DNA of 64,000 nucleotides from an uncultured Methanomassiliicoccales archaeon (GCA_963695345.1 OY968769.1:1728001-1792000); one strand, 5' to 3'. Counted from the stretch's first letter, positions 10,436 through 30,989 are shown. The notes: generated by a model from the letters alone, not told the origin. Made by a program: numbers and translations.

Positions 10436-10831
10436 TCACCTGGTCGCCTTTACGTTCCCCATGTCATCGTAGACAAAACCGGTGAAATGAAAATCCTTGC
10501 CCGACCGCTTCCTGACCTCTGCCACTATGGTCGTGTAGATCGCAGCCGCCATGTCCCGGGGGAACCTCGACTCGGGGAACATGATCCCCAGTATCGGGAC
10601 GCTGTCCACCACCGCCGCGTAGTCCTCCAGGTTCTCCACTCTTCCAGCCGTGTGTTCCGATTCGATGAACTCCATCGAGCTGATCGCGCCGGCAGAACTT
10701 ATTCTGACGACCCCCCGTTCACCGGAATCGTCGACCACGCACTCACAGACCGCGCCAGGGTCCTTTTTCAGGACCTGAGCGATCCGGTGCTGCCCGACCA
10801 TTCCCATAAGGGCTCTCGTCTCCTGCCTCAT
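10436..10831 (-). CDS. Hypothetical protein downstream of cheD
   Basis: 131-aa ORF with normal composition; no family recognised. Confidence 0.65.
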   Translation of the reverse strand: MRQETRALMGMVGQHRIAQVLKKDPGAVCECVVDDSGERGVVRISSAGAISSMEFIESEHTAGRVENLEDYAAVVDSVPILGIMFPESRFPRDMAAAIYTTIVAEVRKRSGKDFHFTGFVYDDMGNVKATR

Positions 10832-10889
10832 CGGGGACGATAATGGATGGCAATATGTTTATCCTTTCGTGTTGAAAAATAATTGCGGA

Positions 10890-12087: not shown

Positions 12088-12099
12088 TTATTCACCCGT

Positions 12100-12756
12100 T
12101 CAAACCCCGAATTTCGCGTACATAGCCGATTGCGACTCCGTGTCAACCCCGAACTTCTTGAACGTCAGGTCCTGCGTGGCTTCATCTGGCAGGAACATTA
12201 TCGTACCGTGGTATTTCTTGGCCCGATCTACATAATCGGTCATGATCCTGATCTCATAGGGTGCGTTCAGTCCCAACACCGAATTGGCCTTGGCGGCCGA
12301 CGCTCCCACATATTGGATATGCACGACCGGCGCGGACGGCATCGGCGAGATCTTCAGGAATTTCGATATCGGTGCCAGGTACTCCCTGATGCAGACATCC
12401 CCCATCTCGGTCAGGACCTCCTTGTCCTCTTCGGTGGGCATCCTGCCCGGGGGGTTCTGTGTCCCCATCATCAGGTCCGACAGCATCGTCGCGATGCCCA
12501 TCGGAAGGATCATCAGGACCCGGCTTCCCTTGGCGGTGGCGACATCGATGCATATGGTGGCCACTATGTCCTTCGGCTGGCCGAAGCGGCTGAGGTGCTT
12601 GTCCATAGGTTCCAGGTAACACTCGGTAACGTCGATCAACACCTCTTTCTTGACCAGGTTGGTCAATGCCCCGCAGGCATAGGAGGCCCCTACATTGCCA
12701 ATTTCCCGCAGCGCGTCGATCTGCAGCTCGTCCAGGCTCTCTGTCCTTTTGCTCAA
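12100..12756 (-). CDS. cheC: Second CheC-family protein
   Basis: DALREIGN motif; second motif degenerate (EMGD). Confidence 0.85.
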   Translation of the reverse strand: MSKRTESLDELQIDALREIGNVGASYACGALTNLVKKEVLIDVTECYLEPMDKHLSRFGQPKDIVATICIDVATAKGSRVLMILPMGIATMLSDLMMGTQNPPGRMPTEEDKEVLTEMGDVCIREYLAPISKFLKISPMPSAPVVHIQYVGASAAKANSVLGLNAPYEIRIMTDYVDRAKKYHGTIMFLPDEATQDLTFKKFGVDTESQSAMYAKFGV

Positions 12757-14727
12757 ATGAATGCCCCCACGTCAAGTATCATTGCTACCTTACCATCGCC
12801 TAGTATCGTCGCCCCGGAGAAGAATCCCGCCGACCTCAGGTCGCGTCCCAGGTTCTTCACCACTATCTCCTGCTGCCCGATCAGTCTGGTCACCAGCAGG
12901 CAGGCGGAATTCTCGTTCTTTTCGACGATGATCGCTGGCATGTCCTTATGCTCCGTGACCATTCCGCCGAACTCCGAGTGTATGTTCAGCACCGGCAGGA
13001 CCTCGTCCCTCAGCCGGAACACTCCCTGGTGTGCCACCTCGATGACCTGGTCCATGTTGACCCGGACCGTCTCCCGGACGTTCTCGAGCGGTATGGCGTA
13101 CTTCTCGTTATTGACCTCGACCAGCATCGCCCTGATGATGGACATGCTTGGAGGCAGCTTGAGCGTGAACTTGGTGCCCTTTCCGACCTGTGTGTCCATC
13201 TTCACGAACCCGCCCAGGCCCTCGATCTTGGTCTTGACCACGTCCAGTCCGACGCCCCTTCCGGAAATGTCCGATACCTTTTCGGCGGTCGAGAAGCCGG
13301 GGAGGAACACGAAGGAAAGGATCTTCTTCTCCTCCATGCGTTCGACATCCTCCTGGGAGACGAGGCCTTTCTGCACCGCCTTCTTGGCGATCTTCGCCGG
13401 GTCCATCCCGCGACCGTCGTCCTCGACCGTGATGACAATGCTGCTCTGTTCCCGGAACGCGGACAGGACCAATGTCCCTTTGGCCGGTTTGCCGTTGGTC
13501 TTGCGCTGTTCCTCCGGCTCGATCCCGTGGTCGACAGCGTTGCGCAGCAGGTGCACGAGGGCGTCCCCGATCTCGTCCAGGAGACTTCGGTCTATCTCTA
13601 TGTCGTTCCCCTTCATGGTGAACTCGACGTCCTTCTTGCTCTCCTCGCTGACGTCCCTGACCATGCGCGGGAAGCGCTTGAATATGAAATCCACCGGCAC
13701 CATCCTCGTCCGGAGAACGATGTCCTGCATCTCGGTCATCAGCCGGGAGTTGTTCTGCAGCGTCTGCTTGAGCTCCCGGTGCTTCAGGTCGGTGGCGATC
13801 TGGTTGATCCGGATGTTGTTGATCATGATCTCGCCCACCAGGTCCAGCAGCTGGTCCAGCAGCTTGCTCTTCACCCTGATGGTGTTACCGGTATTGAGAC
13901 GACTTTTCCGATGAGGAGCCCTCCGAGGTCCTTGTTGCCTCGCAGGTGTCCTGGGTGACCGCGGTGATGCTCTCCTCTTCCTTGAAGCCCATGAGCATCT
14001 CGGTGTCGACCTGCTCCATTCCGATGACGTCCTTGGCCGCGATGGCGATGGCCTCCGCGTTCTCCTGGGTCGCCAGCACCAAGGTCATGCCGTCGTCATC
14101 TTCCTTGACCTCGGTGGCCAGAGGCTTGGATGTGATCAGGGTGCCCATCTGTGACATGCGACGGACGAGCTGGAAGGCCCTGCCCTCCTTGAACTTCAGG
14201 TTCTTCTCATAGGTCACGACTATCTCGTAGACCAGTTTACCGCTGCCGATGGCGTCGTTGACCTGCTTCTTCTGCTCGGTGGAAAGGGGCAGGTTACCTC
14301 CCTGCTCCTCCTTCTGCTCTTCCTTGACCGCGCCGGGCTTTGACGCCAGGTCCTGGAACTTCTTCATCTCGGCGATCAGGCCGTCGACCTTGATGTCGGT
14401 GGTCCCGTCCTTTTCCAGCTGCACGATCATCTTTTCTATCGTGTCCGCCCCCCGGAAGAGCAGGTTGAGCAGTTTCTTCTCCGGTGTCTTCTTCTGCTCG
14501 ACGAGAATGCCGAAGAGGTCCTCCATTACGTGGGCAAGTTCGCTTATGGACTCGATGCCGATCACTGCCGCCGTGCCCTTGATGGTGTGCACGACCCGGT
14601 AGGCGACCTTCATCGATTCCTCGCTGAAGCCCTTCTCCTCCAGCTCTAGAAGGACATTGTTCACTCCCTGTAGGTTCTCCCGGGCCTCCTCGATGAACAC
14701 GTCCAGATACTTTGATTTGTCAACCAT
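12753..14727 (-). CDS. cheA: Chemotaxis histidine kinase CheA (frameshift in the P2-P3 linker near 13890-13960)
   Basis: HPt HTIKG, TIRV at the P3 start, RNAVDHG, DDGRG, GFST and SGRGVG motifs, C-terminal CheW-like domain. Confidence 0.93.
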
Positions 14728-14738
14728 TAGACTATCCC

Positions 14739-15770
14739 CTAGTCCTTCAATGCGATCATGATGTGGTCTGCTATGTCCTCCAGCGGAACGACCATATCCG
14801 CTGCGTGGGAGTCGACCACTGCCTTAGGCATGCCGTAGACGACGCACGAGGCCTCGTCCTGCACTATGGTCCTGCCTCCGAAATCCTTTATCATCTTCAT
14901 CCCCTCTGCCCCGTCGTAGCCCATTCCAGTCAGCACAACGCCTACGATCTTCTTGCCGTAGATCGGTGCCGCTGTCTTCATCATCACGTCGACCGCTGGG
15001 CGGACGAAATGTATCTTGGGGTCCTCGTTCAAATGCACATGGTTGCCGACGACCTCCATGTGGTGGTTGCCAGGCGCGATGAGCACGTGGCCACGCTTCA
15101 GTTCGTCCCCCTCCTCCGCCTCCTTGACGTCCAGGGACGATGTCCAGTTCAGCCGTTCCGCGAAAGATTTGGTGAAACCTTCCGGCATGTGCTGAACCAC
15201 CAGTATCGCTGCCGGGATGTCCCCGGGAAGACGCGACAGAACCTCGGGCAGAGCCTTCGGACCGCCGGTCGAGGAACCGATCAGCACCAGCTGGTCTCCC
15301 TTGACACCCCTCACATGATGGTCCATTATGTTGTGGACGGGGGCGTTGGCCTTTACCTTCACCTTGCTCGCTATCTTGATCGTCTCGATGATCGTCTTAG
15401 CCACTTTGTCTATGTCGAGAGAGAGCGATCCAGATGTCTTCGGTATGAAATCGATGGCCCCGAGCTCGAGCGCCTTCATGGTGATGTCCGCCTGTTTCTT
15501 GTCGGCGGAGCTGATCATGATGACTGGACATGGCGAGTCCCTCATGATATGCTTCAGCGCGGTGATGCCGTCCATCTCGGGCATCTCGATGTCCATGGTA
15601 ACCACGTCCGGGGCAAGCTCTCGTATCTTCTGTAGGGCTTCCCTCCCGTTCCTGGCCGTACCTACGACAACGATGCCCTGGTCCTCCTGGAACAGGTCCG
15701 TGAGGATCTTGCGCATCACCAGCGAATCGTCAACCACCAGCACTCTGATTGGTCCATCCATTTTTTTCAC
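14739..15770 (-). CDS. cheB: Protein-glutamate methylesterase CheB
   Basis: REC domain plus GSSTGG, QHMP and LTGMGYDG motifs. Confidence 0.97.
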   Translation of the reverse strand: MKKMDGPIRVLVVDDSLVMRKILTDLFQEDQGIVVVGTARNGREALQKIRELAPDVVTMDIEMPEMDGITALKHIMRDSPCPVIMISSADKKQADITMKALELGAIDFIPKTSGSLSLDIDKVAKTIIETIKIASKVKVKANAPVHNIMDHHVRGVKGDQLVLIGSSTGGPKALPEVLSRLPGDIPAAILVVQHMPEGFTKSFAERLNWTSSLDVKEAEEGDELKRGHVLIAPGNHHMEVVGNHVHLNEDPKIHFVRPAVDVMMKTAAPIYGKKIVGVVLTGMGYDGAEGMKMIKDFGGRTIVQDEASCVVYGMPKAVVDSHAADMVVPLEDIADHIMIALKD

Positions 15771-15773
15771 ATC

Positions 15774-16142
15774 TCATCCGATTGTCTTGGCCGCCGCTTC
15801 CAGCAGGGCTGATTCGTCGAACGGTTTGACCACGAACTCCCGGGCCCCGTTCTCCATGGCCTGGAGCACCAGGTTCTTCTGGCTCAGACCGGTGACCATC
15901 ATGATCCTGGCCTTGGAATCGAGGGTCACGATCTTCTTGACGATCTCCACCCCCGGCTCGCCCGGCATGATGATGTCCATCGTCACCAGGTCTGGTTGTA
16001 GTTTGGAGTAGAGTTCGACGGCCTCGGCCCCGTTCTTCGCCTGCCCGACCACACTGAACCCGTTCCGGGACAGTATGTCGTTGATCATCTTCCTCATGAC
16101 GATCGAGTCGTCACAGATCAGAACCTTCTTTGGGTCGCTCAT
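15774..16142 (-). CDS. cheY: Response regulator CheY
   Basis: Single REC domain (DD, MDIIMP, KPF) inside the che cluster. Confidence 0.95.
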   Translation of the reverse strand: MSDPKKVLICDDSIVMRKMINDILSRNGFSVVGQAKNGAEAVELYSKLQPDLVTMDIIMPGEPGVEIVKKIVTLDSKARIMMVTGLSQKNLVLQAMENGAREFVVKPFDESALLEAAAKTIG

Positions 16143-16672
16143 ACTGATATCTCTCCTTTCTTCTCTTCCTTGATCTTAAACACGTTCTCCATCTCTTCCT
16201 TGGATAGCATGATCTTGTTCAGATCGAGCAGCATTACCAGTTTGTCCTGCAGCTTGCATATGCCGGTGAGCAGTTCCGTGTCCATGGCGGAAGCCAGCGT
16301 CTTGGGCGGAGGTGAGATGCTGTTCTTGGGCACTCTCATCACATCCTCGACCGAATCCACGATTATTCCGATCTGGTTGTCGCCTACCTCAGCCACGATG
16401 ATACGCGATTGGGCTGTCCTTCCACCTACCCCATCGTCGATGTTGAACCTCTTCCGGAGGTCGATCACGGTGGTGATCTGACCCCTCAGGTTCATGACTC
16501 CCTCGATGTAGTCCGGCATCTTGGGGATCTTGGTGATGTCCTGGACCTTCCCGATCTCTCTGACCTGATTGACACTCACGGCGAAGGTGCTCTTTCCCAG
16601 TTGGAATGACACGATCTGTTCCTCATCGCCGGTGAGCTCGACCTTCTCTCTTCTCCTGCGCATGTTAGACAC
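16139..16672 (-). CDS. cheW: CheW adaptor
   Basis: IPKMPDYIEGVMNLRGQI motif. Confidence 0.96.
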   Translation of the reverse strand: MSNMRRRREKVELTGDEEQIVSFQLGKSTFAVSVNQVREIGKVQDITKIPKMPDYIEGVMNLRGQITTVIDLRKRFNIDDGVGGRTAQSRIIVAEVGDNQIGIIVDSVEDVMRVPKNSISPPPKTLASAMDTELLTGICKLQDKLVMLLDLNKIMLSKEEMENVFKIKEEKKGEISV

Positions 16673-16673
16673 C

Positions 16674-19600
16674 TCAGTTCTCTGCCTCTATCCCTCTCTT
16701 GCGGAGGGCCTCTTTGACCTTGGTCGGCATCCTGGCATCGTCAGTCCCTGTCATGTTGGCAGGTGCCTTCTTGGTCACTGCTTTCTTAGGGGCGGCCGTC
16801 TTCGGCGCCTCTGCCTTTCTTTGTACCGGTGCGACCACCGCACCGATGTTGAATTGTCCCGCGATCTTCTGCAGGTTGACGGACATCTCCGACAGCGCCT
16901 GGGCCCTGGCGGTCATGTCCTCCATGCTGGCGGTCAGCTCTTCGGTCGAAGCGGCCGATTCCTCGGCGGACGACGCGGTCTCCTCCGCGATGCTGGCGAT
17001 GCCGTCCACCGACTTCGCCGCCCGCTGGGTCCCTTCCTTCTGCGAGTTCATCAGGTTCGATATCTCAATGACCCCGGCGGTGGTGGTGGCGGCCAGTCCC
17101 TGGATGTCACCGAACGCCTTGCCGGTCATTTCCACGAATTGCATTCCTTCCGCGGTCTCCTTGGTGCCGCGGTGCATGGCTTCAACGGCCTTGGCGGTCT
17201 CGCTCTGGACCTCCTTGATCATCTTGGCGATGCGCTCGGCAGCCTCTCTCGAGTCCTCGGCCAGGTTCTTGACCTCTTCGGCGACGACGGCGAAACCGCG
17301 TCCCTGGTCCCCGGCCCTGGCGGCCTCGATGGCGGCGTTAAGTGCCAGCAGGTTCGTCTGGTCAGAGATGTTGGTGATGACGTCGACGATCTCGCCGATC
17401 TCCTCGGACCTCTTGCCGAGCGATTCGATGACCTTGGCGCTCTCGACGACGACCTTCTGGATCTCCTGCATCTTCTTGATCGTCGATTCGACGGTCCCCT
17501 TTCCGGCATTGGCGCTGTCGTTGGCCTTCTTTGCCGCCTCTGACGCCGCCATCGATTGGGTGTAGGCTTCCTGGACCGACGTCGAGATCTCCTTCATGGC
17601 CTTGGCCGTCTCGTCGACCTGCGAGGCCTGGCTCTGGGCGCCCTTGGATATCTGTTGGATGGCCGAGGACACCTGTTCGGTCGAGGCATTCATCTCCTCT
17701 GCCGAGGATGCCAGCTCCTGCGATGTCGATGAGACCATGCCGACCGAGTTGTTGACCTCGACCAGCAGCGCTGTAAGGCTCTCCCCGATCGCGTCCAGCG
17801 AGGCGGCGAACTTGGAGAAGTCTCCCTGGGTCTCGATCTCGACCCGGGTCGTCAGGTCCCCGTCCGGCGTAGGAATCGGCGATGCGCATCGCTTCCTCGA
17901 TCGGTCCGATGACCGCGTCCAGCGTGTCATTGACACCCTGAACGATCTTGCGGTAGTCGCCCTGATGCTTGCTCGCGTCAGCCCTGGTGGATAGTTTCCC
18001 TTCCACCGCCGCCTTGCTCAGCATTCCAGCGTCGGCTACCAACGCATTGACCGCATCGATCGCCTGGTTCAGGTTGTTCTTGATGTTGTTGAAATCGCCA
18101 TTGTACGAGTCGGTGATCTTCGCCGGGATCGCTCCCTTCGAGATCTCATCGACGTACTTCGCTGCCACGTTCAACGGTCCGATGACCGCATCCAGCGTGT
18201 CATTGACACCCTGAACGATCCTCTTGTAGTCTCCATGGTGCTTAGTGGCATCGGCCCTGGTGGATAATTTCCCTTCCACCGCCGCCTTGCTTAGCATGCC
18301 AGCATCGGCGACAAGCGCATTCACCGCATCGATCGCCTGGTTCAGGTTGTTCTTGATGACATTGAAGTCACCGTTATATGTGTCAGTGATCTTCGCCGGG
18401 ATCGCTCCCTTCGAGATCTCATCGACGTACTTCGCTGCCACGTTCAACGGTCCGATGACCGCATCCAGCGTGTCATTGACACCCTGAACGATCTTCTTGT
18501 AATCTCCCTGGTGCTTGGAAGCATCGGCGCGGGTCGCCAACTTGCCTTCGACGGCCGCCTTCCTCAGCATTCCAGCATCGGCGACAAGCGCATTGACCGC
18601 GTCGATCGCCTGGTTCAGGTTGTTCTTGATGTTGTTGAAATCGCCATTGTAGTGTCGGTGATCTTCGCCGGGATCGCTCCCTTCGAGATCTCATCGACGT
18701 ACTTCGCTGCCACGTTCAACGGTCCGATGACCGCGTCCAGCGTGTCATTGACACCCTGAACGATCTTGCGGTAGTCGCCCTGATGCTTGCTCGCGTCAGC
18801 CCTGGTGGATAGTTTCCCTTCCACCGCCGCCTTGCTCAGCATTCCAGCATCAGCAACGAGGTTGTTGACGGCGTCGATCGCCTGGTTCAGGTTGATCTTG
18901 ATGGTGTTGAAATCGCCGTTGTAGTTGTCGGTGATCTTCGCCGGGATCGCTCCCTTCGAGATCTCATCGACGTACTTCGCTGCCACGTTCAACGGTCCGA
19001 TGACCGCGTCCAGCGTGTCATTGACACCCTGAACGATCTTCTTGTAATCTCCCTGGTGCTTGGAGGCATCGGCGCGTGTGGCCAATTTGCCCGCGACCGC
19101 CGCCTTGCTTAGCATGCCCGCATCAGCTACTAGTCCTCTTATGGCATCTCTTGCTTGAACGAGGGAGGCATTGATCGGCACATACATCTCGTGGAGATCC
19201 TGGGTGTACTGGTCCGCATCCTTCAAGAGAGGTTCGAATGCCAAATCTCCTCTGGCCAACTCGATCAGATTAGCCTTATGGTGCTCTAACCATTCCGTAC
19301 GGTAGGCCAGACCACGGGCAGATGCGGTGACGTCTTGTACGATCTCGATGTGACCCATCTTGTCGCCCTTGGAGTCCTTGAGGTAGGCTATGTCCACTTG
19401 GAAGTTCATGTTAGCCTGCTCGAAGAACGTCCTCGGCTTTCCTGACTTAAGGCAAGCGATACCGCAGTTGTCGGTCTTGCATATGCCAGCTCCCCAGTTG
19501 CTGCAATGCTTGCCCATCATGTCAGCACGCTTAACGCCGAGCATCGTCTCGACGGGCTTATTTATGAACAACCACCTCATTTCATTGTCCGTGACTGATA

Positions 19601-19697
19601 GGGGCCACGGTAGTGAGTCAAGTACCTGCTCGTAAAGGAAGACTCTGGTCTCAAGCTCTTTTATCGTCTTTTCCATTGCATTAATTTCCATTGTCAC
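16674..19697 (-). CDS. Soluble methyl-accepting chemotaxis protein 1 (Cys-rich PAS, poly-HAMP; two frameshifts near 17865 and 18655)
   Basis: [17 protein letters not shown] signalling domain; 91-aa HAMP-like repeats; no hydrophobic TM segment. Confidence 0.9.
17903..19130 (-). repeat. ~4.5 near-identical 273-nt tandem repeats (poly-HAMP units)
   Basis: ggtccgatgaccgc anchors at 17903, 18176, 18449, 18721 and 18994 (spacings 273, 273, 272, 273). Confidence 0.92.
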
Positions 19698-19790: not shown

Positions 19791-19831
19791 CTAATAAAGG
19801 GCAAACAGATGGCAATCAGCCATGATAATCA
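19791..19831 (-). promoter_or_regulatory. TATA box plus upstream 21-nt motif of the MCP1-cheW-cheY-cheB-cheA operon
   Basis: - strand TGATTATCATGGCTGATTGCC-N11-CTTTATTA; 19/21 identical to 26686-26706. Confidence 0.7.
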
Positions 19832-19910
19832 TTCGAGAAAGGCAAGGTTAGTTTGCGTACGCAAGAAAAGTTGAAAAATTGAAGGGGTTTGGAAACATAT
19901 CGAGAAAGGA

Positions 19911-22900
19911 TCACTTACCTGCCTCGATCCCTCTCCGGTTCAGTGCTTCCTTAACTTTTCGAGGTACCTGGGCCTCTTCCCTCGAGGTCTTGGGTCGGTG
20001 ACTTCTTGATCTCCTTCGTGCGGGTATAGAGCGGGGCTACTTCCGGTCCGTTCGCCTCACTTATCTCGTCGGGGTCCGCGTCGATCTTGAACTGGGCAGA
20101 TACCCTCTGTAAGTTCACCGCCATCTCTGACAGCGCCTGGGCCCTGGCGGTCATGTCCTGCATGCTGGCGGTCAGTTCTTCCGTCGAAGCGGCAGATTCC
20201 TCTGAGGACGAAGCGGTATCATCCGCGATGCCCGCAATGCCGTCGACTGACTTTGACGCCCTCTGGGTCCCTTCCTTCTGGGCTTTCATTTCTTCCGAGA
20301 ACTTACCCATCATTACCTCGAACTGTGCAGACATGTCCGATATCTCACGGAACGCCTTCCCAGTCACTTCGACATGCTGCATTCCCTCGGCGGTCTCCTT
20401 GGTGCCGCGCTGCATCGCCTCGACCGCCTTGGCGGTCTCGCTCTGGACCTCCTTGATCATCTTGGCGATACGCTCGGCGGCCTCCCTTGAGTCCTCGGCG
20501 AGGTTCTTGACCTCTTCAGCAACGACGGCGAATCCACGGCCCTGCTCTCCTGCCCTGGCCGCCTCTATCGCCGCGTTCAGCGCCAGCAGGTTGGTCTGGT
20601 CAGAGATGCCGGTAATGACGTTCACAATTTCCCCAATCTCCTCGGAACGTTTGCCCAGTGTGTGGATCACCTTGGCCGATTCCTCGACCACGTTGGACAC
20701 TTCTTGCATCTTTTTTATGGTGTTCTCAACGGTCTTGACACCAGCGTTGGCCCTTTGGCTTGTCGTCCTTGCCCCCTCCGATGCTAGGGCCGACCTCTTC
20801 TCCGCCTCGTCCACGGTCTTGGAGACTGAGGCCATTGCCTTCGCGGTCTCGTCGACCATCGCCGCCTGGGTCTGAGCTCCTTTCGATATCTGTTGGATGG
20901 CTGAGGCGACCTGTTCCGTCGAGGCGTTCATCTCCTCAGCCGATGAGGCCAGTTCCTGCGATGTGGATGAGACCATGCCTACGGAGTTGTTAACCTCCCT
21001 CAGGAGGTCGGTCAGGCTCTCCCCGATATGGTCCAATGATTCTGCCAGTTTCTTGAAGTCTCCCTTCGTTTCAATTTCCACTCGGACCGTAAGGTCCCCG
21101 GCCGCGTAGGCGTCGGCGATCCGAACGGCTTCCAATAGAGGCCTGGTGAACGCGTCCAGCGTATCATTGACTCCACGTATCGCATTCCGGTACTCGCCCT
21201 CGTGCTTCGCGATATCGGCCCTGGTCCTCAGCTGTCCTTCCATCGCCGCCTTAGAAAGCATGTTGGCATCATGAACCAACAGGGATATGGCATCCCTGGC
21301 CTTGACCAGGCTCTTACTTATGGTGATGAAGTTCTCCCTAATCGCCACGGTGTACTTGTCGCCCTCGCTGACCGTCAGGTCCAGCGACAGGTCACCGTCG
21401 GCGATCTTGATCAGGTTCTTCGCCAGACGGTCTATCTCGACATTGCGGTAGATGTCGTTCACGGTCGTGGCGGTCACATCGCTCACGAACCCTTCGATGG
21501 TGAGCAGCGACCCGTCACTGCCATAGACCCCCCTGCCCTGTTCCCAGACCCACTTGATCTCGCCGGAGGCGGTGCGGAGACGGTAGTTTGTGGTGTAGCC
21601 GCGCTTCAGATTGAGGCCTGCTTGGATATCGTTCCACACCCGATCCCCATCCTCTGGCAGGATGAGCGAACCATAGGTCAGCTTCTGGTTGTTCATCAGG
21701 TCTGATGCTTGGTATCCAGTCATCTCCCTTGCGCCATCGCTGATGAACTCCATGGTGTAATCCTTGTCGTTCCGGCAGCGGAACGCCATCCCTGGCAGGT
21801 TGCTCAGGAGAGTAGTGGTCTTCCTCTCGTTCTCCTTCAGTGCCTCCTGCGCCCTGGTCTGTTCGGTGGTGTCGGAGACGAAACCCTCGATGGCGATGAC
21901 TGCACCTTCCGGTGACATCACTGGGAGCCCTTGTTCCCAGACATGCTTGATATCTCCGGAGGCGGTACGTATTCTGTATGTCGACGTGTACCTGCGCTTC
22001 TCCTTGATGCCTTCGGATATGTCCCTTCCTACCTTGTCCAGGTCATCTGGGAGGATCAAAGAGCCATAGGCCTTGTTCTTGCTGAAAGTGAGGTCGGTGG
22101 AGGAATAGCCGGTCAGATTTTGGCATCCATCGCTGATGAACTCCATGGTGTAATCGGCGTCGTTCTTGCAGCGGAACGCCATCCCTGGCAGGTTGCCGAT
22201 GAGGGTCGAGGTCCTCCGTTCGCTCTCCTTGAGGGCATCCTCTGCCTTTTTCTGTTCCGTGACGTCCTGGACCATCTCGACATGCCCGATGATCTCGCCA
22301 TTGGCGTTCCTCAGATGGGACAGGCTGATCTCCGAGGTTTGTCCGTCCTTCTCGACTAGGGTCATATTCTGACCCTCCTTCAGACTGATCATACCGCAGC
22401 GTTCTGTCCTGCAGATCGGAGAATTGAGCATATTGCACGGCTGTCCGAGCAAGTCTCCGGCCTTGTGCCCCATCCTGTCAGCAGCTGGCTTGTTGAGGAA
22501 TGTCAGCTTCATATTCGCATCGGCCGCTATGACCGGGAAAGGAATGGCATCGAAGATCTGCTGGTATTGGTATACCAGGCCCTCGGCACGTGACTCAGCG
22601 GCTTGCTTGGCATAGGCCATGATGGTGGCGGTCCGTCCGTCCGCGCCGGGCGTGGACTTCAGCCTGAGGGAGATCATAAATGGCTTTCCCGCTTTCGGGC
22701 GGACCTCGGCCCGGTCGACATCGACCGTCTGCCCTTTAGCGAAGGAATCCATCATAGCGGGATTGCCTGGTGTGTTTGGCAGGTCTATGATGGCCTTGAT
22801 GCCCATCTTCATTGCCTCATCCAGCCGGTAACCGGTCAGATTCTCCATTCCCGTGTTGTACGCGATCAGCGAAAGTCCGCCGTCCATCGCGAACGCGGAA

Positions 22901-22965
22901 AGGGGGATGCTGTCGATCAGGTCCTCTATCATCTTTCTCGACGTGTCCGGTTCCATGTATGTCAC
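19911..22965 (-). CDS. Soluble MCP 2 (four PAS/PAC domains; frameshift near the C-terminus ~19995)
   Basis: Duplicated [22 protein letters not shown]_3 domains and an MA domain; the alternate frame gives [18 protein letters not shown], matching MCP3. Confidence 0.9.
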
Positions 22966-22990
22966 GCTCCAATGGGTCGGTCCTTGACCA

Positions 22991-25900
22991 TCACTTTCCT
23001 GCTTCTATCCCTCTCCGGTTAAGGGCTTCCTTTACCTTTCGAGGCACCTGGGTCTGATCCCTGGATACCTTAGGCGGAGATTTCTTGACCTCTTTCTTGC
23101 GGGTGTAGAGAGGGGCCACTTCCGGTCCGATCTCCTCACACACTTCGTCAGTGTCCACATCGATCTTGAACTGTGACGCTACCTTCTGCAGGTTCACCGA
23201 CATCTCCGACAGCGCCTGGGCCCTGGCGGTCATGTCCTCCATGCTGGCGGTCAGCTCCTCGGTCGAAGCGGCCGATTCCTCGGCGGACGATGCGGTCTCC
23301 TCTGCCACGCTGGCGATGCTGTCGACCGCCTTGGCGGCCTTGGCGGCGCCTTCCTTCTGGGCCTTCATCTCCACCGAGAATTTACTCATCATGTCCTCGA
23401 ACTGTCCGGACATGTCCGATATCTCACGGAACGCCTTCCCGGTCACTTCCACATGCTGCATTCCCTCGGCGGTCTCCTTGGTGCCGCGCTGCATCGCCTC
23501 GACCGCCTTGGCGGTCTCGCTCTGGACCTCCTTGATCATCTTGGCGATACGCTCGGCGGCCTCCCTTGAGTCCTCGGCGAGGTTCTTGACCTCCTCCGCG
23601 ACGACTGCGAATCCGCGTCCCTGCTCTCCTGCCCTGGCCGCCTCGATGGCGGCGTTCAGCGCCAGCAGGTTGGTCTGGTCCGATATGTTGGTGATGACGT
23701 CGACGATCTCGCCGATCTCCTCGGACCTCTTGCCGAGCGATTCGATGACCTTGGCGCTCTCCTGGACGACCTTCTGGATCTCCTGCATCTTCTTGATCGT
23801 GTTCTCGACGGTCGCGACACCGGCGTTTGCCCTCTGGCTTGTCGTCTTGGCCCCTTCCGACGCGCTCACAAGGCGCTTCTCAGCCTCGTCTACCGTCTTG
23901 GTGACCACGGCCATGCCCTTGGCTGTCTCGTCGACCTGGGCCGCCTGGTTCTGGGCGCCCTTGGATATCTGCTGAATGGCCGAGGAAACCTGCTCGGTCG
24001 AGGCGTTCATCTCCTCAGCCGATGAGGCCAGCTCCTGGGATGTGGACGATACCATGTTGACCGAGTTGTTGACCTCCGATAGCAGTGAGCACATGCTCTC
24101 GCCTATCTTGTCAAGCGAGGTGGCGAAAGCCGCGAAGTCACCCTTAGCTTCGATCGAGACGCGGGCTGTCAGGTCGCCATCTGCGTATGAATTGGCGATC
24201 CTCATGGCTTCCTCTATCGGTCCGGTAACCGCATCAAGTGTTTCATTGACGCCCTGAACGATCATCTGGTAGTCTCCCTGATGCTTGCTTGCGTCCGCCC
24301 TGGTGGATAGTTTCCCTTCCACCGCCGCCTTGCTCAGCATGCCCGCGTCGGCCACCAACGCATTGACCGCGTCGATCGCCTGGTTCAGGTTGTTCTTGAT
24401 GTTGTTGAAATCGCCATTGTACGAGTCGGTGATCTTCGCCGGGATCGCTCCCTTCGAGATCTCGTCGACGTACTTCGCTGCCACGTTCAACGGCCCTATG
24501 ACCGCGTCCAGCGTGTCGTTCACACCTTGTACGATCTTGCGGTAATCTCCATGGTGCTTGGAGGCATCGGCACGCGTGGCCAATTTACCCTCGACCGCCG
24601 CCTTGCTCAGCATGCCAGCATCGGCGACCAAGCGCATTGACCGCGTCGATCGCCTGGTTCAGGTTGTTCTTGATGTTGTTGAAATCGCCATTGTACGAGT
24701 CGGTGATCTTCGCCGGGATCGCTCCCTTCGAGATCTCGTCGACGTACTTCGCTGCCACGTTCAACGGCCCGATGACCGCGTCCAGCGTGTCGTTCACACC
24801 TTGTACGATCTTGCGGTAGTCGCCCTGATGCTTGGAGGCGTCGGCTCTCGTGTCCAGCTTACCGTTGATGGCCGCATCTACTAATGCATCCGCGTCTTTC
24901 GCCATCGATGATATGGCCTCCACCACCTGCATCAGGTCCTTGTTCACGGTCTGGTATTCCTGGCTGATGTCCTTGGTATAATCATCAGCGGGGGTCACAT
25001 TTAGGTCCAGGTTCATGCTTCCAACTGACAGGCTCTTGAGGTTGCTAGACAACCGTTTGAACTCGCCTGCCTGATATTTCTGCTGCCGTATGGTCTTGGT
25101 GACATCCTGCATGACCTCGACATGGCCGATCTTTTCGCCTTTGGCGTTGGTCAAGAAGTTCACGTCGATCTTTGAGTTCTTGCCGTCACGGTCGGAGATA
25201 GTGGAACGCTGTCCTTCCCTCAGACGGATGATGCCGCAATTCTTCGTGTTGCATATCGGGCCGTTCCATGCTGCGCAGTGCTTGCCCAGCAGGTCCTTCC
25301 GGTCCACCTTCAATATGCCCATGGCTGGCTTGTTGATGAAGGTGATCTTCATGCTCATGTCGGTGACCGATATGGGCCATGGAATCGAGTCCAGGATCTG
25401 CTCGTACCAATAGGTCTTCTCCACGACCTTGTCCAGTGTCTGGTTGAAACCGGAGATTACCTTAGCGAAGTCTCCCTTGTGCCGGCTCAGGTCCGCACGG
25501 ACCTCGAACTTCTGTTCAGCCGCCGCCTGTTCCAGCATCTTCGAGTCGTCGAGCATGCAGGTGATGGCGTCGATGCACATGTTAAGGTTGGTCTTCATAA
25601 TGTTGAAGTCGCCGTTCCAGTTCGCCGTGATCTTGCCGGGCATGTCGCCCTTGGAGATCATCTTGACGTAGTGGGCAGCTACCTTTAGCGGGGCCAGATA
25701 GGCATCGAGGGTATCGTTGATGCCTTTGACGATCTTCCGGTCATTGCCTTCGAACTTGTCCACGTTGGCCCTTGCCTTCACATCGCCGGCGATCGCCTTC
25801 TCGGTAAGCGCGAGGACCTCCTTGGTGTACTCCATTTCCCTGGTGATATCGTTGAAGTATTCAACGACGCCTTGAACCTTGCCAGCGTCGTCCTTGCGGG

Positions 25901-26549
25901 CAGTGGCTGTGATCCGGAACTGCTTGTCCTCCCCATGGATCTTCATCACCACATCGCCTTTCGACATCTCTCCGGTCCTGAGGACGGCCTCAAGGACGAC
26001 ATCCGGTTTATTGCCTATGCCAGAATCGAATATCTCATAGCACTTCTTGCCCAGGACGTCCGACTCATTGAGCCCCAAGACCTTCAAGGCGGTCTGGTTC
26101 ACGAAGCTTATGCTCAGGTCTGATTCAATGGATATGACCATATTGGGGGCGTGGTCCACGACCGATCGGGTCAGTCCTTCAGAGACCGCTCCCAGAGGCT
26201 CAAGGTAACCGACTCCACCCATTATCTTCCCAGATTGATCGAAAAGCGGGATCGCTTTCATGTGGATGTTAAGCTTTTCATTCTCCGAGTTCATGATCTC
26301 CATGGAGCTGATCTCGATTCCCTTGCCGCTGTTCAGTGCGTCGATGACCGGACACCCTTTCTTACCAATGGTGTTGCCAAAGACGTCCTTGAGGCGCATG
26401 CCCAGTGCCTCCACCAATGGATACCCCGTCATGTCTTCGGCGGCCTTGTTGAAATGAGTGATCTTTGCGCTCGCGTCGATCGCGAAGGTGGCGACCGGCA
26501 CCGAGGATACGATCTCAGCCAATACTGTAGTTCCTTGGTCATTTTCCAT
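22991..26549 (-). CDS. Soluble MCP 3 (three PAS, poly-HAMP; frameshift near 24628)
   Basis: PAS domains, HAMP repeats and an MA domain; one repeat spacing of 274 instead of 273 marks a 1-nt insertion. Confidence 0.9.
24219..24860 (-). repeat. 273-nt poly-HAMP repeats nearly identical to those in MCP1
   Basis: Anchors at 24219, 24492 and 24766. Confidence 0.88.
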
Positions 26550-26665
26550 TTCTAGTACTCCCCTAGTTTCAATTTTTTTATAACAATCCCGATCTTAGAT
26601 TGTCAGGGCTCTTGCATTTCATGTGCAAAATGCCAAACTCTTGGACAAATGCAGGAATTATGATG

Positions 26666-26706
26666 ATTATAAAGACCAAAGAATCGGCAATCACCCGTGA
26701 TAATCA
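26666..26706 (-). promoter_or_regulatory. TATA box plus upstream 21-nt motif of the MCP3-MCP2 operon
   Basis: - strand TGATTATCACGGGTGATTGCC-N11-CTTTATAA. Confidence 0.7.
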
Positions 26707-26830
26707 AAAAGAGGCCTTGTCACGCTCGCTCCGAATTCATACTGAAATCAGGCCAGATATCATGGACTCGCTTCTTAAAGTGAGATTCAAGCCGTCGTGT
26801 TTTCTATACTAGCAAGACTCTTTTCAATGG

Positions 26831-27667
26831 ATGGCACCAGAGCGAGTCTGCACAGACAAGGATTTTATCACTTTAAAGAAGAAGATATTCCACTCCACCT
26901 CCCTCGATCTCGGCCAGTACAAGGATACCTATCTGCAGAGACGGATCGGGGTACGGATGCGGAGCTGCGGATCCAAAGTGTATGCGGATTACAGCAGCTT
27001 TCTCGATTCCAATCCCAAGGAGTACGACCATCTCCTTGACGACCTGACGATCAATGTGACCCAGTTCTTCCGGGACCCGATCGTATTCAAGGCGATGGAA
27101 GAGGAGGTGTTACCCCTTTTGATCTATGACAAGGTCAAACACGGGAAAAGGGACATAGCGATTTGGAGTGCCGGATGTTCCAGTGGGGAAGAGCCATACT
27201 CCATCGCGATCATGATGCGGGAGTTGCTGGGCGAGGAGATGGACAATTTCAATGTCAATATCATCGGCTCGGACATAGATGACTTCAGCCTCGACGCTGC
27301 CGCCGTCGGGAAGTATCTCCCGCGCCAGGTGACGAATATCAAAAAAGAGTACCTGGAAAGGTACTTCACGTTGGAGGATGAGATGTATCAGATATCCCAG
27401 GACATCATGGATATGGTGGACCTGCGCAAGATAGACCTGATCGCCTCCAAACCTCCCACCAAGTTCGACTGCATATTCTGCCGCAACGTGGTCATCTACT
27501 TCACCCGCGAGATGCAGGAGCATCTTTACATGAAGTTCTACGACTTCCTGAACGAAGGGGGATATTTCGTAATGGGCAACACTGAGACCCTGGTCGGGGA
27601 GGCTTCGCAACTGCTGACCACGTTCAAGAGCCGGGAAAGGATCTACCAGAAGATCGCCACCGTTTGA
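26831..27667 (+). CDS. cheR: Chemotaxis methyltransferase CheR
   Basis: TINVTQFFRD, WSAGCSSGEEPYS and CRNVVIYF motifs. Confidence 0.97.
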   Translation: MAPERVCTDKDFITLKKKIFHSTSLDLGQYKDTYLQRRIGVRMRSCGSKVYADYSSFLDSNPKEYDHLLDDLTINVTQFFRDPIVFKAMEEEVLPLLIYDKVKHGKRDIAIWSAGCSSGEEPYSIAIMMRELLGEEMDNFNVNIIGSDIDDFSLDAAAVGKYLPRQVTNIKKEYLERYFTLEDEMYQISQDIMDMVDLRKIDLIASKPPTKFDCIFCRNVVIYFTREMQEHLYMKFYDFLNEGGYFVMGNTETLVGEASQLLTTFKSRERIYQKIATV

Positions 27668-27755
27668 TGGAGTTTAGCAGAATAGAATATGGCCAGTGTA
27701 TTCGGGGAAGGCCCCGAAACCTATATTAGCTTCAATCGGGTCATGTCCGATCGTT

Positions 27756-28754
27756 ATGTCGGGAACCCCTCTCGGTGATCCTGAGAAAGTCATCGAAGTC
27801 AAGGATCTGGTGCGAATCTACCGGACGAGCCAGGGTTACATTCATAAGAAGAGAAAGGAGACCTTGGCAGTGGACCACATATCCTTCTCGGTGAACAAGG
27901 GGGAGCTGTTCGGGATACTGGGACCCAACGGGGCCGGGAAGACCACCACAATAAAAATGCTCACCACTCTTCTCATACCGACCTCCGGGAGAGCGACGGT
28001 GCTCGGACTCGATGTCAGCAAGGACCCGTACGAGATCAGGAAGAGGATAGGTCTGATCATCGGAGGCGAGCGCGGTCTGTACTATCGCATCAATGGCAGG
28101 CAGAACCTGAGATATTTCGCCGACCTGTATGGAGTGCCGCGCCATGAAAGGGAGCAGCGCATCGAGGATGTGCTTCGAAGGGTCGACCTTCTTGACCGGG
28201 CGGACGATCGGGTGGAGGATTACTCCAGGGGCATGAAACAGAGGCTTCACATCGCCAAAGGCCTGATCAACGACCCGGAAGTAATATTCATGGACGAACC
28301 GACGATCGGTCTCGATCCACAGGCCTCCCGGGATACCCGGAACCTGATTAAGGACCTAATAGCCAGCGGCAAGACCATCCTTATGACCACTCATTACATG
28401 TTCGAGGCGGACGATCTATGCGACCGGTTGGCCGTGATCAACAAGGGGAAGGTCGTAGCAATGGATACCCCCCGGGGGCTGAAGTCCCTGATGAAGGACA
28501 CATGCGTGATCGAGGTGGAAGGTTTTGGTCTGACGGAAAAGGACATCGAGGTTCTAAGAACGGTTCCTGGTGTCCGAGCGGTCAGCTCGGCCATGAACGA
28601 GGACAAACAGGTCCTGCGAGTGCAGGTGACGGACGCCGGAGAGATGCTGGCCCCGATAGCGGGGTGCCTGAGCGGAAAGAACATCATCGACATGAAGGTC
28701 AAAGAGCCCACGCTCGAGGATGCCTATCTATGGCTGGTCGAGAATAATGACTAG
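27756..28754 (+). CDS. ABC-2 exporter ATP-binding subunit
   Basis: GPNGAGKT, YSRGMKQ and DEPT motifs. Confidence 0.93.
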   Translation: MSGTPLGDPEKVIEVKDLVRIYRTSQGYIHKKRKETLAVDHISFSVNKGELFGILGPNGAGKTTTIKMLTTLLIPTSGRATVLGLDVSKDPYEIRKRIGLIIGGERGLYYRINGRQNLRYFADLYGVPRHEREQRIEDVLRRVDLLDRADDRVEDYSRGMKQRLHIAKGLINDPEVIFMDEPTIGLDPQASRDTRNLIKDLIASGKTILMTTHYMFEADDLCDRLAVINKGKVVAMDTPRGLKSLMKDTCVIEVEGFGLTEKDIEVLRTVPGVRAVSSAMNEDKQVLRVQVTDAGEMLAPIAGCLSGKNIIDMKVKEPTLEDAYLWLVENND

Positions 28755-29532
28755 GTTACGGGCCCTCACTTCATCGTTCCGCCATCAGATGCTCCACTTC
28801 TTTGCGGAGCCCCAATGGCTCATCCCGAACATCATCGCCCCGTTCGTGATGACCCTGGTGGCGCTGATGCTCTTCCGCAACGCCGATGGCAACTTCATCC
28901 TCTACGCCATCCTGGGAGGAGGAATGATGGGGATGTGGGGGAACACCCTGTACTCTTCCGGATATTCGATACAGTTCGATCGATGGAACGGTACCTTGGA
29001 AGCGGTGCTGGCCACCCCGGCGCCGCTGGTATGGATAATCGCCGGCAGGTCCCTCTGGAACGCTCTAATCGGCATACTCAATGCGGTGTTCATCTTCATC
29101 ATCGCGGTGTTCTGGTTCAAGGTCCCGATGGTCCTGGTTGACCCCCTGTTGTTCTTCTTGGCTCTGTTCGTCACCCTGCTTTCGCTGGCGGCGTTGGGGT
29201 TGGTCTTCAGTTCCGCCTTCGTTCTGACCCGGAACGCCAGCGTTTTCACAAACGGGCTGGAGTTCCCCATCTACGTCGGCACGGGAACGATGTTCCCGAT
29301 CGCCATGCTGCCGGCCTGGAGCGGACCCCTCTCGCTTTCGCTGGCGCCCTCCTGGGGGATCGACGCGATGAGATATTCCGCCCTCAGCGCCTACGTCGGG
29401 CTCGAGCCCGGTTACTGGGGAGACATGGCGGCAATGGTCGGACTGGCCCTGGTCTATGTTTCCGTGGCATTCTTGCTCTTCCAGGCCATCGAGAGAAGGG
29501 TTCGGGTCAAGGGCGACGCGGGGAGGATCTAG
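28747..29532 (+). CDS. ABC-2 exporter permease
   Basis: About 6 TM segments; DRWNGTLE motif. Confidence 0.9.
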   Translation: MTRLRALTSSFRHQMLHFFAEPQWLIPNIIAPFVMTLVALMLFRNADGNFILYAILGGGMMGMWGNTLYSSGYSIQFDRWNGTLEAVLATPAPLVWIIAGRSLWNALIGILNAVFIFIIAVFWFKVPMVLVDPLLFFLALFVTLLSLAALGLVFSSAFVLTRNASVFTNGLEFPIYVGTGTMFPIAMLPAWSGPLSLSLAPSWGIDAMRYSALSAYVGLEPGYWGDMAAMVGLALVYVSVAFLLFQAIERRVRVKGDAGRI

Positions 29533-30339
29533 ATGTTAGGCCGGTTCTCCGGATTCGTCCGTGTGTTCTGGTCGTCGGCCGTTCTGGCCAAGAACGCACT
29601 GTTCAACTGGCTATCCCCTCCCATGTGGATAATGCAGCTCTTCTCCATATCGCTGTTCCAGATCGCGTTCTTTGTCTACGTCACCAATTTCGCGGGGAAC
29701 CCGGACATCAGCGTTACCTATGTCGCCATCGGGAACGCGCTGCAATCGATTTCCTATGTCACCGTATTCGCCGTCTGCAACATCACCGGGGAGGAGAAGC
29801 AGCAGGGTACGCTGGGACCGATACTATCCACACCGGCGAACCGCATGGCCATGTTCATAGGGCGCGCCCTCTTCCAGATAGTCAACGGCATTGCCACCGC
29901 GGTGATCGCGTTGTTCTACGCCGCCTTCCTTTTCGGGGTGGATTTCTCCCGCACGGACATGCTGGCATTGGGAGTCGTTGTGGTCATTACGGCCTTCGCC
30001 ATGACCGGGTTCGGCCTGATGCTCAGTTCCGTAGGGCTGTACCTTAGAACATCGATGATAATCGCCAACATCTTCCTTTTCATTGGCCTGCTTTTCTGCG
30101 GGGTCAACTTCCCCGTATCCTACCTTCCCGGATACCTGCAGCCGATCTCCTACGGCATACCGATGACCTTCGGCACCGATGCGGCCAGGGCGGCGGTCGA
30201 GGGCACATCGCTGTTCGGAATGGCGGGAACGCTCGGATTGGAGGTGCTGGTAGGCCTGGTGGCCCTATTCCTGGGCTACTTGATGTTCATTATGTTCGAG
30301 AACCTGTCGAGAAGGCGCGGGACGATGGACCGGTATTGA
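29533..30339 (+). CDS. ABC-2 exporter permease
   Basis: About 6 TM segments; EKQQGTL motif. Confidence 0.9.
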   Translation: MLGRFSGFVRVFWSSAVLAKNALFNWLSPPMWIMQLFSISLFQIAFFVYVTNFAGNPDISVTYVAIGNALQSISYVTVFAVCNITGEEKQQGTLGPILSTPANRMAMFIGRALFQIVNGIATAVIALFYAAFLFGVDFSRTDMLALGVVVVITAFAMTGFGLMLSSVGLYLRTSMIIANIFLFIGLLFCGVNFPVSYLPGYLQPISYGIPMTFGTDAARAAVEGTSLFGMAGTLGLEVLVGLVALFLGYLMFIMFENLSRRRGTMDRY

Positions 30340-30436
30340 CCAGCCGAGGATATCGTGGCCATTCCAGAACGTAAAATTTACCTATTCATCCATAACGGAC
30401 CCGAAGAATGACGTTCGAACCTTGCCCAAGAACAAT

Positions 30437-30826
30437 TTACCTGACGACGGTGACCGTGCAGGTGGCCGTCTTGTAGATGGATTCAGCGGTGCTGCCGGAG
30501 AATTTCGCCTTCATTCCGGTCTTTCCAGAGCTACCCATTATGATCATGTCGGCCTCGATCCTCTCCGCCGCCTCCATGATCGTGTTGAACGGGTCACCGG
30601 CTTCCAGGAGCGTGTTCAGCTCCACGCCGATCTCAGCCGCCTTGATCTTGGTCCGGCCAAGAACCCTCATTCCGTTCTTGATGTTCTTGTCCTTCTCCAG
30701 CTCCGCCTTGGGGCTCACCACGTAAATGGCATAAAGATTGCATCTGAGAACCTTGGCAAGCACGATCGCATAATGTGCTGCCTTCTCTGAGTGCGGTTTT
30801 CCGTCATTTGCCACTATCACGTTCAT
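30437..30826 (-). CDS. Universal stress protein
   Basis: IVANDG; IIMGSSG...GSTAE motifs. Confidence 0.93.
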   Translation of the reverse strand: MNVIVANDGKPHSEKAAHYAIVLAKVLRCNLYAIYVVSPKAELEKDKNIKNGMRVLGRTKIKAAEIGVELNTLLEAGDPFNTIMEAAERIEADMIIMGSSGKTGMKAKFSGSTAESIYKTATCTVTVVR

Positions 30827-30946
30827 TAAGCTCTCACCCTATTGCCATTCCGTTATCATGTGGCTTATTGGGGACCTCGTCCATCCTTCCGATGGAAATC
30901 CGACAGTCCCTTTGAGTTGGATTGAAAATGAGGAGCGCAAAGAGGA

Positions 30947-30989
30947 TATTAAAACAGACATCCCCCGGAAATCATCGATGATAACATCA
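30947..30989 (-). promoter_or_regulatory. TATA box plus a degenerate copy of the che-promoter motif upstream of usp
   Basis: + strand taaaac-N11-ggaaatcatcgatgataa aligns with ataaag-N11-ggcaatcannnntgataa. Confidence 0.5.

Follow-up and report, generated by a model that had tools for sequence, protein, structure and literature searches.

A palindromic candidate operator of CsmR type before chemotaxis, archaellin and regulator-gene promoters of an uncultured Methanomassiliicoccales archaeon

Two sets of genes for chemotaxis receptors and their signalling partners lie in a 64,000-nt stretch of DNA from an uncultured Methanomassiliicoccales archaeon (GCA_963695345.1, OY968769.1), bases 1728001-1792000 of a single-contig genome of 2.56 Mb and 56% G+C. 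We call this whole stretch the window, and count positions from its first letter. Upstream of each set lies a 21-nt box with a palindromic core, ATCA-N4-TGAT, at a fixed distance from a TATA box, and a further copy of the core precedes usp, a gene for a universal stress protein. These boxes are very probably the operators of a regulon of the CsmR type—CsmR being a small DNA-binding protein described in Haloferax volcanii—and the same element recurs elsewhere in the genome, before archaellin genes and before the genes of the candidate regulators themselves. The boxes and their promoters are these:

19811-19831, - strand: box 1, GGCAATCAGCCATGATAATCA, candidate operator upstream of the promoter of the MCP-cheW-cheY-cheB-cheA-cheC-cheC-cheD operon (MCP, methyl-accepting chemotaxis protein); core ATCA-N4-TGAT at 19815-19826, third half-site ATCA at 19828-31
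19792..19799, - strand: TATA box of the box 1 promoter, TAATAAAG on the + strand and CTTTATTA on the - strand; palindrome 15 nt away
26686-26706, - strand: box 2, GGCAATCACCCGTGATAATCA, candidate operator upstream of the promoter for a pair of MCP genes, within a divergent region that also serves cheR; core at 26690-26701
26667..26674, - strand: TATA box of the box 2 promoter, TTATAAAG on the + strand and CTTTATAA on the - strand
30967..30984, - strand: box 3, candidate operator upstream of the usp promoter; core at 30971-30982
30947-30954, read as its reverse complement: TATA box of box 3, TTTTAATA
26747..26758, + strand: a 'weaker copy', ATCAGGCCAGAT, with one mismatch; within it lies CCAGAT (26753-26758), a distinct element that is semi-conserved

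The genes beside them are these:

10436..19697, - strand: operon downstream of box 1 (Pfam, NCBIfam)
18615-19697, 17362-18570 and 16674-17936, - strand: MCP, in three frameshifted pieces
16139-16672, - strand: cheW
15774-16142, - strand: cheY
14739-15770, - strand: cheB
13885-14727 and 12753-13874, - strand: cheA, in two pieces
12100-12756, - strand: cheC-like gene
11458-12087, - strand: cheC
10890-11471, - strand: cheD
10436-10831, - strand: unknown open reading frame (ORF), at the end of the box 1 operon
19951..26549, - strand: genes downstream of box 2 (Pfam)
24585-26549 and 22991-24637, - strand: receptor with PAS, HAMP and MCPsignal domains, split by a 1-nt frameshift
19951-22965, - strand: second receptor, 1004 amino acids (aa)
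26831..27667, + strand: cheR (Pfam)
30437..30826, - strand: usp, downstream of box 3 (Pfam)

Pfam, and a scan with NCBIfam, bore out the identities of the genes in the window. On its right, box 2 has cheR and an ABC transporter as neighbours; box 3 is flanked by usp on the - strand and a radical-SAM gene on the + strand. A first-pass annotation had picked out the two 21-mers as nearly identical, and they lie where it placed them: they differ at 2 of 21 positions, and each stands exactly 11 nt from ATAAAG on the + strand (19794-19799 and 26669-26674), that is, from CTTTAT on the - strand. The palindromic core that it proposed is there too, 15-16 nt upstream of the TATA box at boxes 1 and 2, as is the third copy before usp, which under one TATA alignment has the same 16-nt gap to TTTTAATA as box 2. 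Searches with the shared 21-nt pattern find only boxes 1 and 2, whether in the window at up to three mismatches (100 shuffles gave none) or in the whole genome at up to two. The core occurs four times in the window, at boxes 1-3 and once within an MCP coding region, at 21695. Read on the gene strand, boxes 1-3 have the form TTATCA-N4-TGAT(T/A).

Genome-wide, ATCA-N4-TGAT occurs at 84 sites, 39 of them in the 17.5% of the genome left non-coding by our gene map, which comes from a crude ORF caller and so makes these intergenic counts approximate. A TATA box that matches TTTAWATA at seven or more of its eight positions stands within 13-17 nt of the palindrome, in fact at 15-16 nt, at 7 of these 39 sites, where a sample of 20,000 random intergenic positions leads one to expect 0.37; with six or more matching positions the figures become 19 of 39 against 2.7. 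When composite sites are defined as a palindrome with at most one mismatch plus a TATA box of at least 6/8 at 14-17 nt, 60 are found, 44 of them non-coding. Among the exact composite sites (n=19), a co-directional gene lies on the TATA side in 15; a gene lies exclusively on that side in 6, and exclusively on the other side in 1. This bias toward the TATA side places the palindrome upstream of the promoter. Within the genome and across genomes alike, the consensus is ATCA-N4-TGAT with frequent T/A flanks. The sites lie near TATA boxes more often than chance would have it, and they are enriched at motility genes: the genome has six exact 17-mers ATCA-N4-TGATAATCA, and all but one of these stand before genes of the archaellin family or MCP genes.

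To speak of a chemotaxis regulon, as that annotation did, is apt inasmuch as motility and signalling genes are abundant among the candidate targets, but too narrow, for the targets also include archaellins, a pilin, surface proteins, histidine kinases and regulator genes. The site stands before five archaellin genes and three MCP/che promoters, among others. Four archaellin genes in tandem (687-692 kb), followed by flaC/D/E-, F-, G-, H- and I-like genes, each have TTATC(A/G)-N4-TGAT, then 15-17 nt, then TTTAT, one of them with 1 mismatch; a fifth archaellin gene (894 kb) and an MCP gene at 50 kb have the full palindrome-plus-TATA site. For an archaellin-like gene (2066 kb) the palindrome is present but its distance from a TATA box is unclear; at 29 kb, in the cheW region, it comes with a TATA match below the 6/8 cut-off. 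Palindrome-plus-TATA was not found before the archaellin gene at 543 kb or the MCP gene at 1694 kb. Further sites precede two histidine kinases, an archaeal type IV pilin, a TetR-family gene, usp, and several very large surface proteins with NosD, beta-helix, Ig or fn3 domains (367 to 2802 aa), and three precede paralogous genes for winged-helix proteins of ~120 aa, at 2443 kb, 2173 kb and 305 kb.

Two kinds of site can be told apart. Those of motility genes have the form TTATCA-(GC-rich N4)-TGAT(T/A)(C/G)C, and those of regulator genes the form (A)ATCA-(AT-rich N4)-TGATAA, in which TGATAA is turned toward the TATA box; the two classes may reflect differing preferences among the paralogs. At two exact palindrome-plus-TATA sites, at genome positions 145544 and 2406741, there is no ORF within 450 nt downstream, although one of them lies ~400 nt before a small CsbD-like ORF. 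These sites may drive non-coding RNAs or small unannotated genes.

Conservation was followed in 40 relatives of the same order, which with the genome at hand (G000) make 41; no more than two loci per genome were fetched per search, and the relatives are not independent samples. Box 2 is present in 7/7 genus relatives, with ATTATAAAG, the spacer ACCnnAGAAnnnGnA and ATCA-N4-TGATAATC invariant, the N4 free, and the flanks toward cheR diverged. Box 1, together with AATAAAG at the same TATA spacing, is present in three (G007, G006 and G002), and a site orthologous to box 3 in one (G004, locus L070). In another genus (g5, genome G023) a palindrome-TATA site precedes a usp-usp-archaellin cluster. Exact composite sites precede archaellins in 9 of the 16 relatives with archaellin hits, and sites with one mismatch do so in two more (G003 and G006); the archaellin flanks fetched from G009, G010, G012, G020 and G032 held no composite site. 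A stricter pattern, (ATCANNNNTGATN{14,17}TTWAWAWA), gave 10 matches in 10 genomes, against 0 for a reversed-pattern control.

The weaker copy fared otherwise. Both the sequence ATCAGGCCAGAT and the CTTAAA to which it had been tied do exist before cheR, but neither is kept, as palindrome or as TATA box, in the seven genus relatives, where only a CCAG(A/C)T core persists at the position. We have accordingly rejected it as an operator of cheR.

As the first-pass annotation had it, no regulator is encoded in the window, in that none of six candidate paralog genes lies there. Its description of the regulator as unidentified can now be replaced: a candidate can be named, six winged-helix paralogs of the CsmR type, a type published in 2026. 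Members of this winged-helix family are 120-123 aa long and occur in 38 of the 41 genomes, with all six paralogs in G000. Their genes bear the element themselves. Among 30 winged-helix loci fetched from several families of the order, 28 share the exact palindrome in an unchanging position, with 15-16 nt between it and TTTATATA or TTTAAATA downstream, and the other 2 have GTCATTNCTGAT in its stead; in G000, at least three of the six paralogs have palindrome-plus-TATA in their own promoters. The TATA box of these promoters is followed by 37 nt that include a GGTG ribosome site, and then by ATG. Factors that control their own genes classically leave such a signature, and the position of the palindrome suggests that these genes may be autoregulated.

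An alignment of 51 members shows no variation in the recognition helix, PIAxCYRKI. One member adjoins cheR and the arl cluster in G010, and another lies 1.3 kb from the che operon in G023. In G000 the neighbours of the paralogs are acetyl-CoA synthetase, kinase, aconitase-X-like, biotin carboxylase, CheC-like and KaiC-like genes, and none adjoins archaellin genes; paralog P3 (2515.4-2516.1 kb, L063) lies directly upstream of the CheC-like phosphatase gene, on the same strand. Paralog P5 (6.2-8.4 kb, L064) adjoins a KaiC/GvpD-like ATPase gene, a neighbourhood that recalls the one described in Haloferax for csmR and cirA (KaiC-like).

Most regulator-gene promoters across the order (loci L031-L058) have a second element, (A)TCTGGC, 17-18 nt upstream of the palindrome; in G000 it is found, for example, at 2443.9 kb, 2516.0 kb and 305.3 kb. 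Its reverse complement, GCCAGAT, stands ~30 nt upstream of the palindrome in the archaellin promoters of the genus, and its CCAG core persists near cheR (26753-26758).

An AlphaFold model of the protein (pLDDT 84.8) has a four-helix winged helix-turn-helix (wHTH) followed by five strands. Modeled in two copies it scores an ipSAE of 0.62, against 0.02 for the best control, a value reached by 20 of 30 proteins solved as one-chain pairs and by 1 of 23 solved as single chains. The dimer runs agree in at least 94% of contacts, and the partner pLDDT is no lower than 84; strand 79-89 packs against itself in an interface with two-fold symmetry. This predicted dimer supports, but does not show, a fit to the palindrome. 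The best full-length structural match is Phr of Pyrococcus furiosus (PDB 2p4w; TM-score 0.63, query-normalised; ranks 2-3), followed by ArsR-type proteins. Phr is also the best sequence match in the PDB, at E 0.13 and 19-20% identity. Phr differs in being larger (~200 aa) and in its place of work, heat-shock promoters.

The CsmR study (PMC13286277, PLoS Genet 2026; preprint 10.64898/2026.02.03.703544) describes a protein with which this family has much in common. Encoded upstream of arlA1/arlA2, CsmR (HVO_1209) of H. volcanii is a wHTH protein of 13 kDa that dimerises through a beta-sandwich interface, and Foldseek points, again, to Phr (2P4W). Its motif in chromatin immunoprecipitation sequencing (ChIP-seq), TATCA(N4)TGATA, was found in 50 of 65 peaks, in promoter-proximal positions, and the sites lie upstream of the TATA box and the TFB recognition element (BRE) of arl and che units (PMC13286277). 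Half-sites and 4-nt spacer are identical to those described here; so is the fixed position upstream of BRE/TATA. The targets include archaellin and chemotaxis operons in both cases, with links to pilin and signalling genes, and both proteins are wHTH proteins of ~13 kDa with a beta-rich dimer interface and Phr as the nearest solved fold.

Searches support a kinship with haloarchaeal proteins. A profile of the family, run against 1.84 billion representatives, gave 980 matches at E <= 0.001. Among these is P0254 (E 3.5e-14), low in lysine, acidic and haloarchaeal-looking, whose best 80 genome loci all belong to Halobacteria. An archaellin gene follows on the same strand, at a distance of 0.7-1.1 kb, in 33 of these 80, mostly from Haloarculaceae. 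The interval between the csmR-like gene and the archaellin gene holds a composite site, its spacing the same to within 1 nt, in 25 of the 80. When the alignment of the family described here (A1) was compared with that of its haloarchaeal counterpart (A2) by hhalign, the result was 99.6% at E 8e-25, with 35% identity over 88 columns; pairwise BLASTP gave 38-44% identity. The haloarchaeal loci L165-L202 have another exact palindrome as well, ~1.45-1.7 kb upstream of the csmR-like gene and conserved across Haloarculaceae. It is flanked symmetrically, by ATAAA 15 nt to one side and TTTAT/TTAAG 15 nt to the other, and looks like one operator common to two putative divergent promoters.

The differences from CsmR are of several sorts. 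The phylum is another one, and the named protein relatives of our family are from Methanomassiliicoccales metagenome-assembled genomes. There are six paralogs per genome here, as opposed to the one gene described; none of them lies beside archaellin genes, and the family occurs also in relatives without archaellin hits. A palindrome-TATA site is conserved before the regulator genes here, whereas PMC13286277 reports stable csmR transcript levels and does not contain the stem 'autoregul'. The candidate regulon here, finally, includes usp and the large NosD/beta-helix/Ig surface proteins.

The motif, its fixed spacing, its conservation and its enrichment at motility genes were observed here, as were the protein homology and the symmetric dimer of the models; the binding of CsmR to the motif is taken from PMC13286277. 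That the paralogs bind the motif, how they are matched to promoters and with what sign they act, we infer. In the mechanism that we propose, a homodimer of one or more of the ~120-aa winged-helix paralogs would bind (T)ATCA-N4-TGAT(A), a palindrome 15-16 bp upstream of the TATA box and ~9 bp upstream of the BRE position, and would then, most likely, assist the loading of TFB/TBP at promoters with an A-poor BRE position. At the promoters with the site, A occupies BRE positions -3, -4 and -6 in 11 of 57 cases, against ~42% at 193 generic TATA promoters, which recalls the weak-BRE model put forward for EarA (PMC5512572).

Such a dimer would act as an activator, and the balance of the evidence tips modestly toward activation. 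The 'master activator' of the first-pass annotation is nevertheless not established. In Haloferax, as the CsmR paper relates, deletion of csmR abolishes motility and archaella while arl/che transcripts rise, a 'paradox' that leaves the sign open (PMC13286277). The same operator and the same family could therefore work the other way, the bound dimer repressing or dampening its targets and motility genes being derepressed once the protein leaves the DNA; we consider this a serious contender, though a clearly less probable one. Phr, the closest solved fold by computation, is a repressor, and at the haloarchaeal loci just 3 nt separate the TATA box from the site that precedes the regulator gene. 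Repression sits less well with sites that lie upstream of the BRE/TATA position and overlap neither the TATA box nor the start site, or with a BRE position so poor in A, which would suit dependence on an activator. Nor does it sit well with the report that CsmR overexpression leads to hypermotility and deletion to loss of archaella (PMC13286277). For TrmBL1 of Thermococcales, moreover, sites upstream of the promoter brought activation on 2/3 templates, and sites downstream repression on 9/9 (PMC4706686).

TrmBL1/Tgr deserves a word in its own right. Its site, the Thermococcales glycolytic motif (TGM), is TATCAC-N5-GTGATA, and so has the outer half-sites TATCA/TGATA; TrmBL1 is likewise a dimeric wHTH protein, and the position of its site decides the outcome (PMC4706686). 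The wHTH of our paralogs even has weak, sub-threshold matches to the TrmB-HTH of Pfam. The inner spacing, however, is 7 nt rather than 4 nt, and TrmBL1 is a large, sugar-sensing protein of the TrmB family that controls sugar metabolism, whereas the paralogs here are of 120 aa.

If some other factor bound the palindrome, the winged-helix genes would be mere targets. The self-control of these genes is, after all, deduced from the position of their sites, and that leaves some room for such a factor, but we judge it improbable: the homologous haloarchaeal family includes the protein shown to occupy the identical motif by ChIP-seq (PMC13286277), and recognition helix and half-site are both invariant across the order. 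The stricter pattern had 0 matches in three f7 genomes that are without the family, but also 0 in two that have it, and for that reason this underpowered comparison lends weak support at most. Still less probable, to the point of being very doubtful, is that boxes 1 and 2 are alike merely because duplicated receptor operons carried their promoters with them, to no regulatory end. Their downstream genes are indeed paralogous MCPs, and the full 21-mer, including its GGCA flank and part of its spacer, is specific to the MCP promoters of this genus. Yet the core and its spacing recur before genes as unrelated as usp, the regulator genes, the pilin gene and the surface-protein genes, the N4 varies across genera where the half-sites stay fixed, and in another phylum binding to this very motif has been mapped (PMC13286277).

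The first-pass annotation had set the box apart from those of EarA, and rightly so. In Methanococcus maripaludis and Thermococcales, EarA boxes are tandem elements of 6-8 bp, of the TACATA type; there are likenesses in that EarA is a small wHTH protein, its site lies ~9-11 bp upstream of the weak BRE of archaellin promoters, its gene is often near arl/che clusters, and recruitment of TFB has been proposed (PMC5512572, PMC10665913, PMC10117864). The conserved element here belongs to a different protein family, if we are right, and is a palindrome with a free 4-nt center. No boxes of the TACATA type are involved. EarA is also described as always beside a methyltransferase gene (PMC10117864), and the paralogs here are not, save for the cheR neighbor in G010. 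A divergent EarA site would nonetheless account for a position ~9 nt upstream of the BRE, much as in the Thermococcales boxes (PMC10665913). We regard it as exceedingly unlikely, the motif being palindromic, not a tandem of TACATA-type hexamers, and EarA has been ruled out by PF07381 searches and by NCBIfam and Pfam scans of the paralogs. PF07381, the EarA family, was found at E <= 0.001 in 0 of the 41 genomes, in a search whose control rose over the cut-off in 1 of 14 control genomes, Methanocaldococcus jannaschii and Sulfolobus acidocaldarius being named as ringing. The best match in G000, and its only one, scores 12.4 bits against a cut-off of 22 and does not fall at a paralog.

Several observations weigh against the CsmR-type regulon proposed here, beyond the rise of target transcripts in the csmR deletion, which speaks against simple activation, and the approximate nature of the intergenic counts. 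The link to CsmR is drawn from synteny, size, fold and motif, together with homology to proteins from haloarchaeal genera other than Haloferax rather than to HVO_1209 itself. In the survey of csmR the gene appears almost only in Halobacteria and Nitrosopumilaceae, and Methanomassiliicoccales are not listed (PMC13286277); given that narrow range, orthology to the present family is only presumptive. One locus from Haloferacaceae (L178) has no archaellin gene within its 2.5-kb flank. The site of P3 itself is degenerate, with the half-site ATCAAAAACAGT. The family is present in 38/41 genomes, including most of those without archaellin hits, and so is not motility-specific, and its six paralogs have a common recognition helix, which makes any assignment of a paralog to a promoter provisional. 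A TATA box can also be read on the opposite strand: at boxes 2 and 3 this would put the palindrome over the start site facing cheR or the radical-SAM gene. As a general reading, with the TATA box on the + strand and the palindrome as a start-site operator, we discarded it at box 1 and for archaellin and regulator genes, because in these the gene lies on the TATA side alone, or a well-formed TATA box is followed by 37 nt and a Shine-Dalgarno-ATG start. At boxes 2 and 3, which stand in divergent regions, the palindrome may act as a start-site operator in addition.

The cis-element and the type of regulator are already published (2026). New are their presence in a lineage of Thermoplasmatota, the expansion of paralogs, the palindrome-TATA sites before regulator genes and the surface-protein targets. 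In the literature that was searched, on Methanomassiliicoccales together with the archaellum or chemotaxis, we found no description of such a regulon; one preprint deals with a regulated archaellin/pilin gene in Methanomassiliicoccus. To our knowledge, regulators of archaeal swimming are known in three settings only: the Arn network of Sulfolobales, EarA and, since 2026, CsmR. If the present reading is true, CsmR-type control is a far wider archaeal theme, which reaches a methanogen-related lineage devoid of EarA. It would also furnish a list of ~20-45 candidate target promoters, assign a function to a widespread family now annotated as 'hypothetical HTH', and offer natural variation—the free N4, the A-poor BRE position, the paralogs and the second, CTGGC element—for the study of how an upstream dimer contacts TFB/TBP. 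A broader picture can be sketched, tentatively, as something a little short of an even bet. In it, CsmR belongs to an ancient, cross-phylum family in which neither the recognition helix (PIAxCYR+I) nor the operator (TATCA-N4-TGATA, ~15 bp upstream of TATA, with an A-poor BRE position) would have changed from Halobacteria to Thermoplasmatota. The family might then have grown in Methanomassiliicoccales to as many as ten self-controlled paralogs that run archaella, chemotaxis, pili and giant adhesin-like proteins, and in non-motile, gut-type relatives the family might serve as a regulator of surface and adhesion.

The chemotaxis genes of the window present a peculiarity of their own. cheA and two MCP genes (12753-14727, 16674-19697 and 22991-26549) are each frameshifted into adjacent or overlapping ORFs, by an extra G, for example, in CTTGGTCGCC near 24620, where a paralog has CTTGTCGCC. 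Their orthologues in relatives are unbroken: MCPs of 1140 aa (the counterpart, in G007, of the split box 2 receptor) and 1130 aa, and a CheA of 656 aa. Marker-based completeness is only 85% for this one-contig genome, which points to assembly indels, with real decay of the che system as the alternative.

Around box 2, two smaller features are kept in the genus. Some 25 nt ahead of the cheR start codon, ATG, there is a promoter-like block, TTTCTATAC (26801-26809), which is retained in all genus relatives as CGTTNTCTATACTAGCA. It suggests a separate, nearly leaderless promoter for cheR, in place of the CTTAAA proposed earlier. In the presumed 5' leader of the box 2 MCP operon there are two inverted repeats, ACAATC..GATTGT and GCATTT..AAATGC (26582-26603 and 26614-26633), both kept in the genus relatives while the DNA around them diverges. 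These could be leader hairpins or a second operator.

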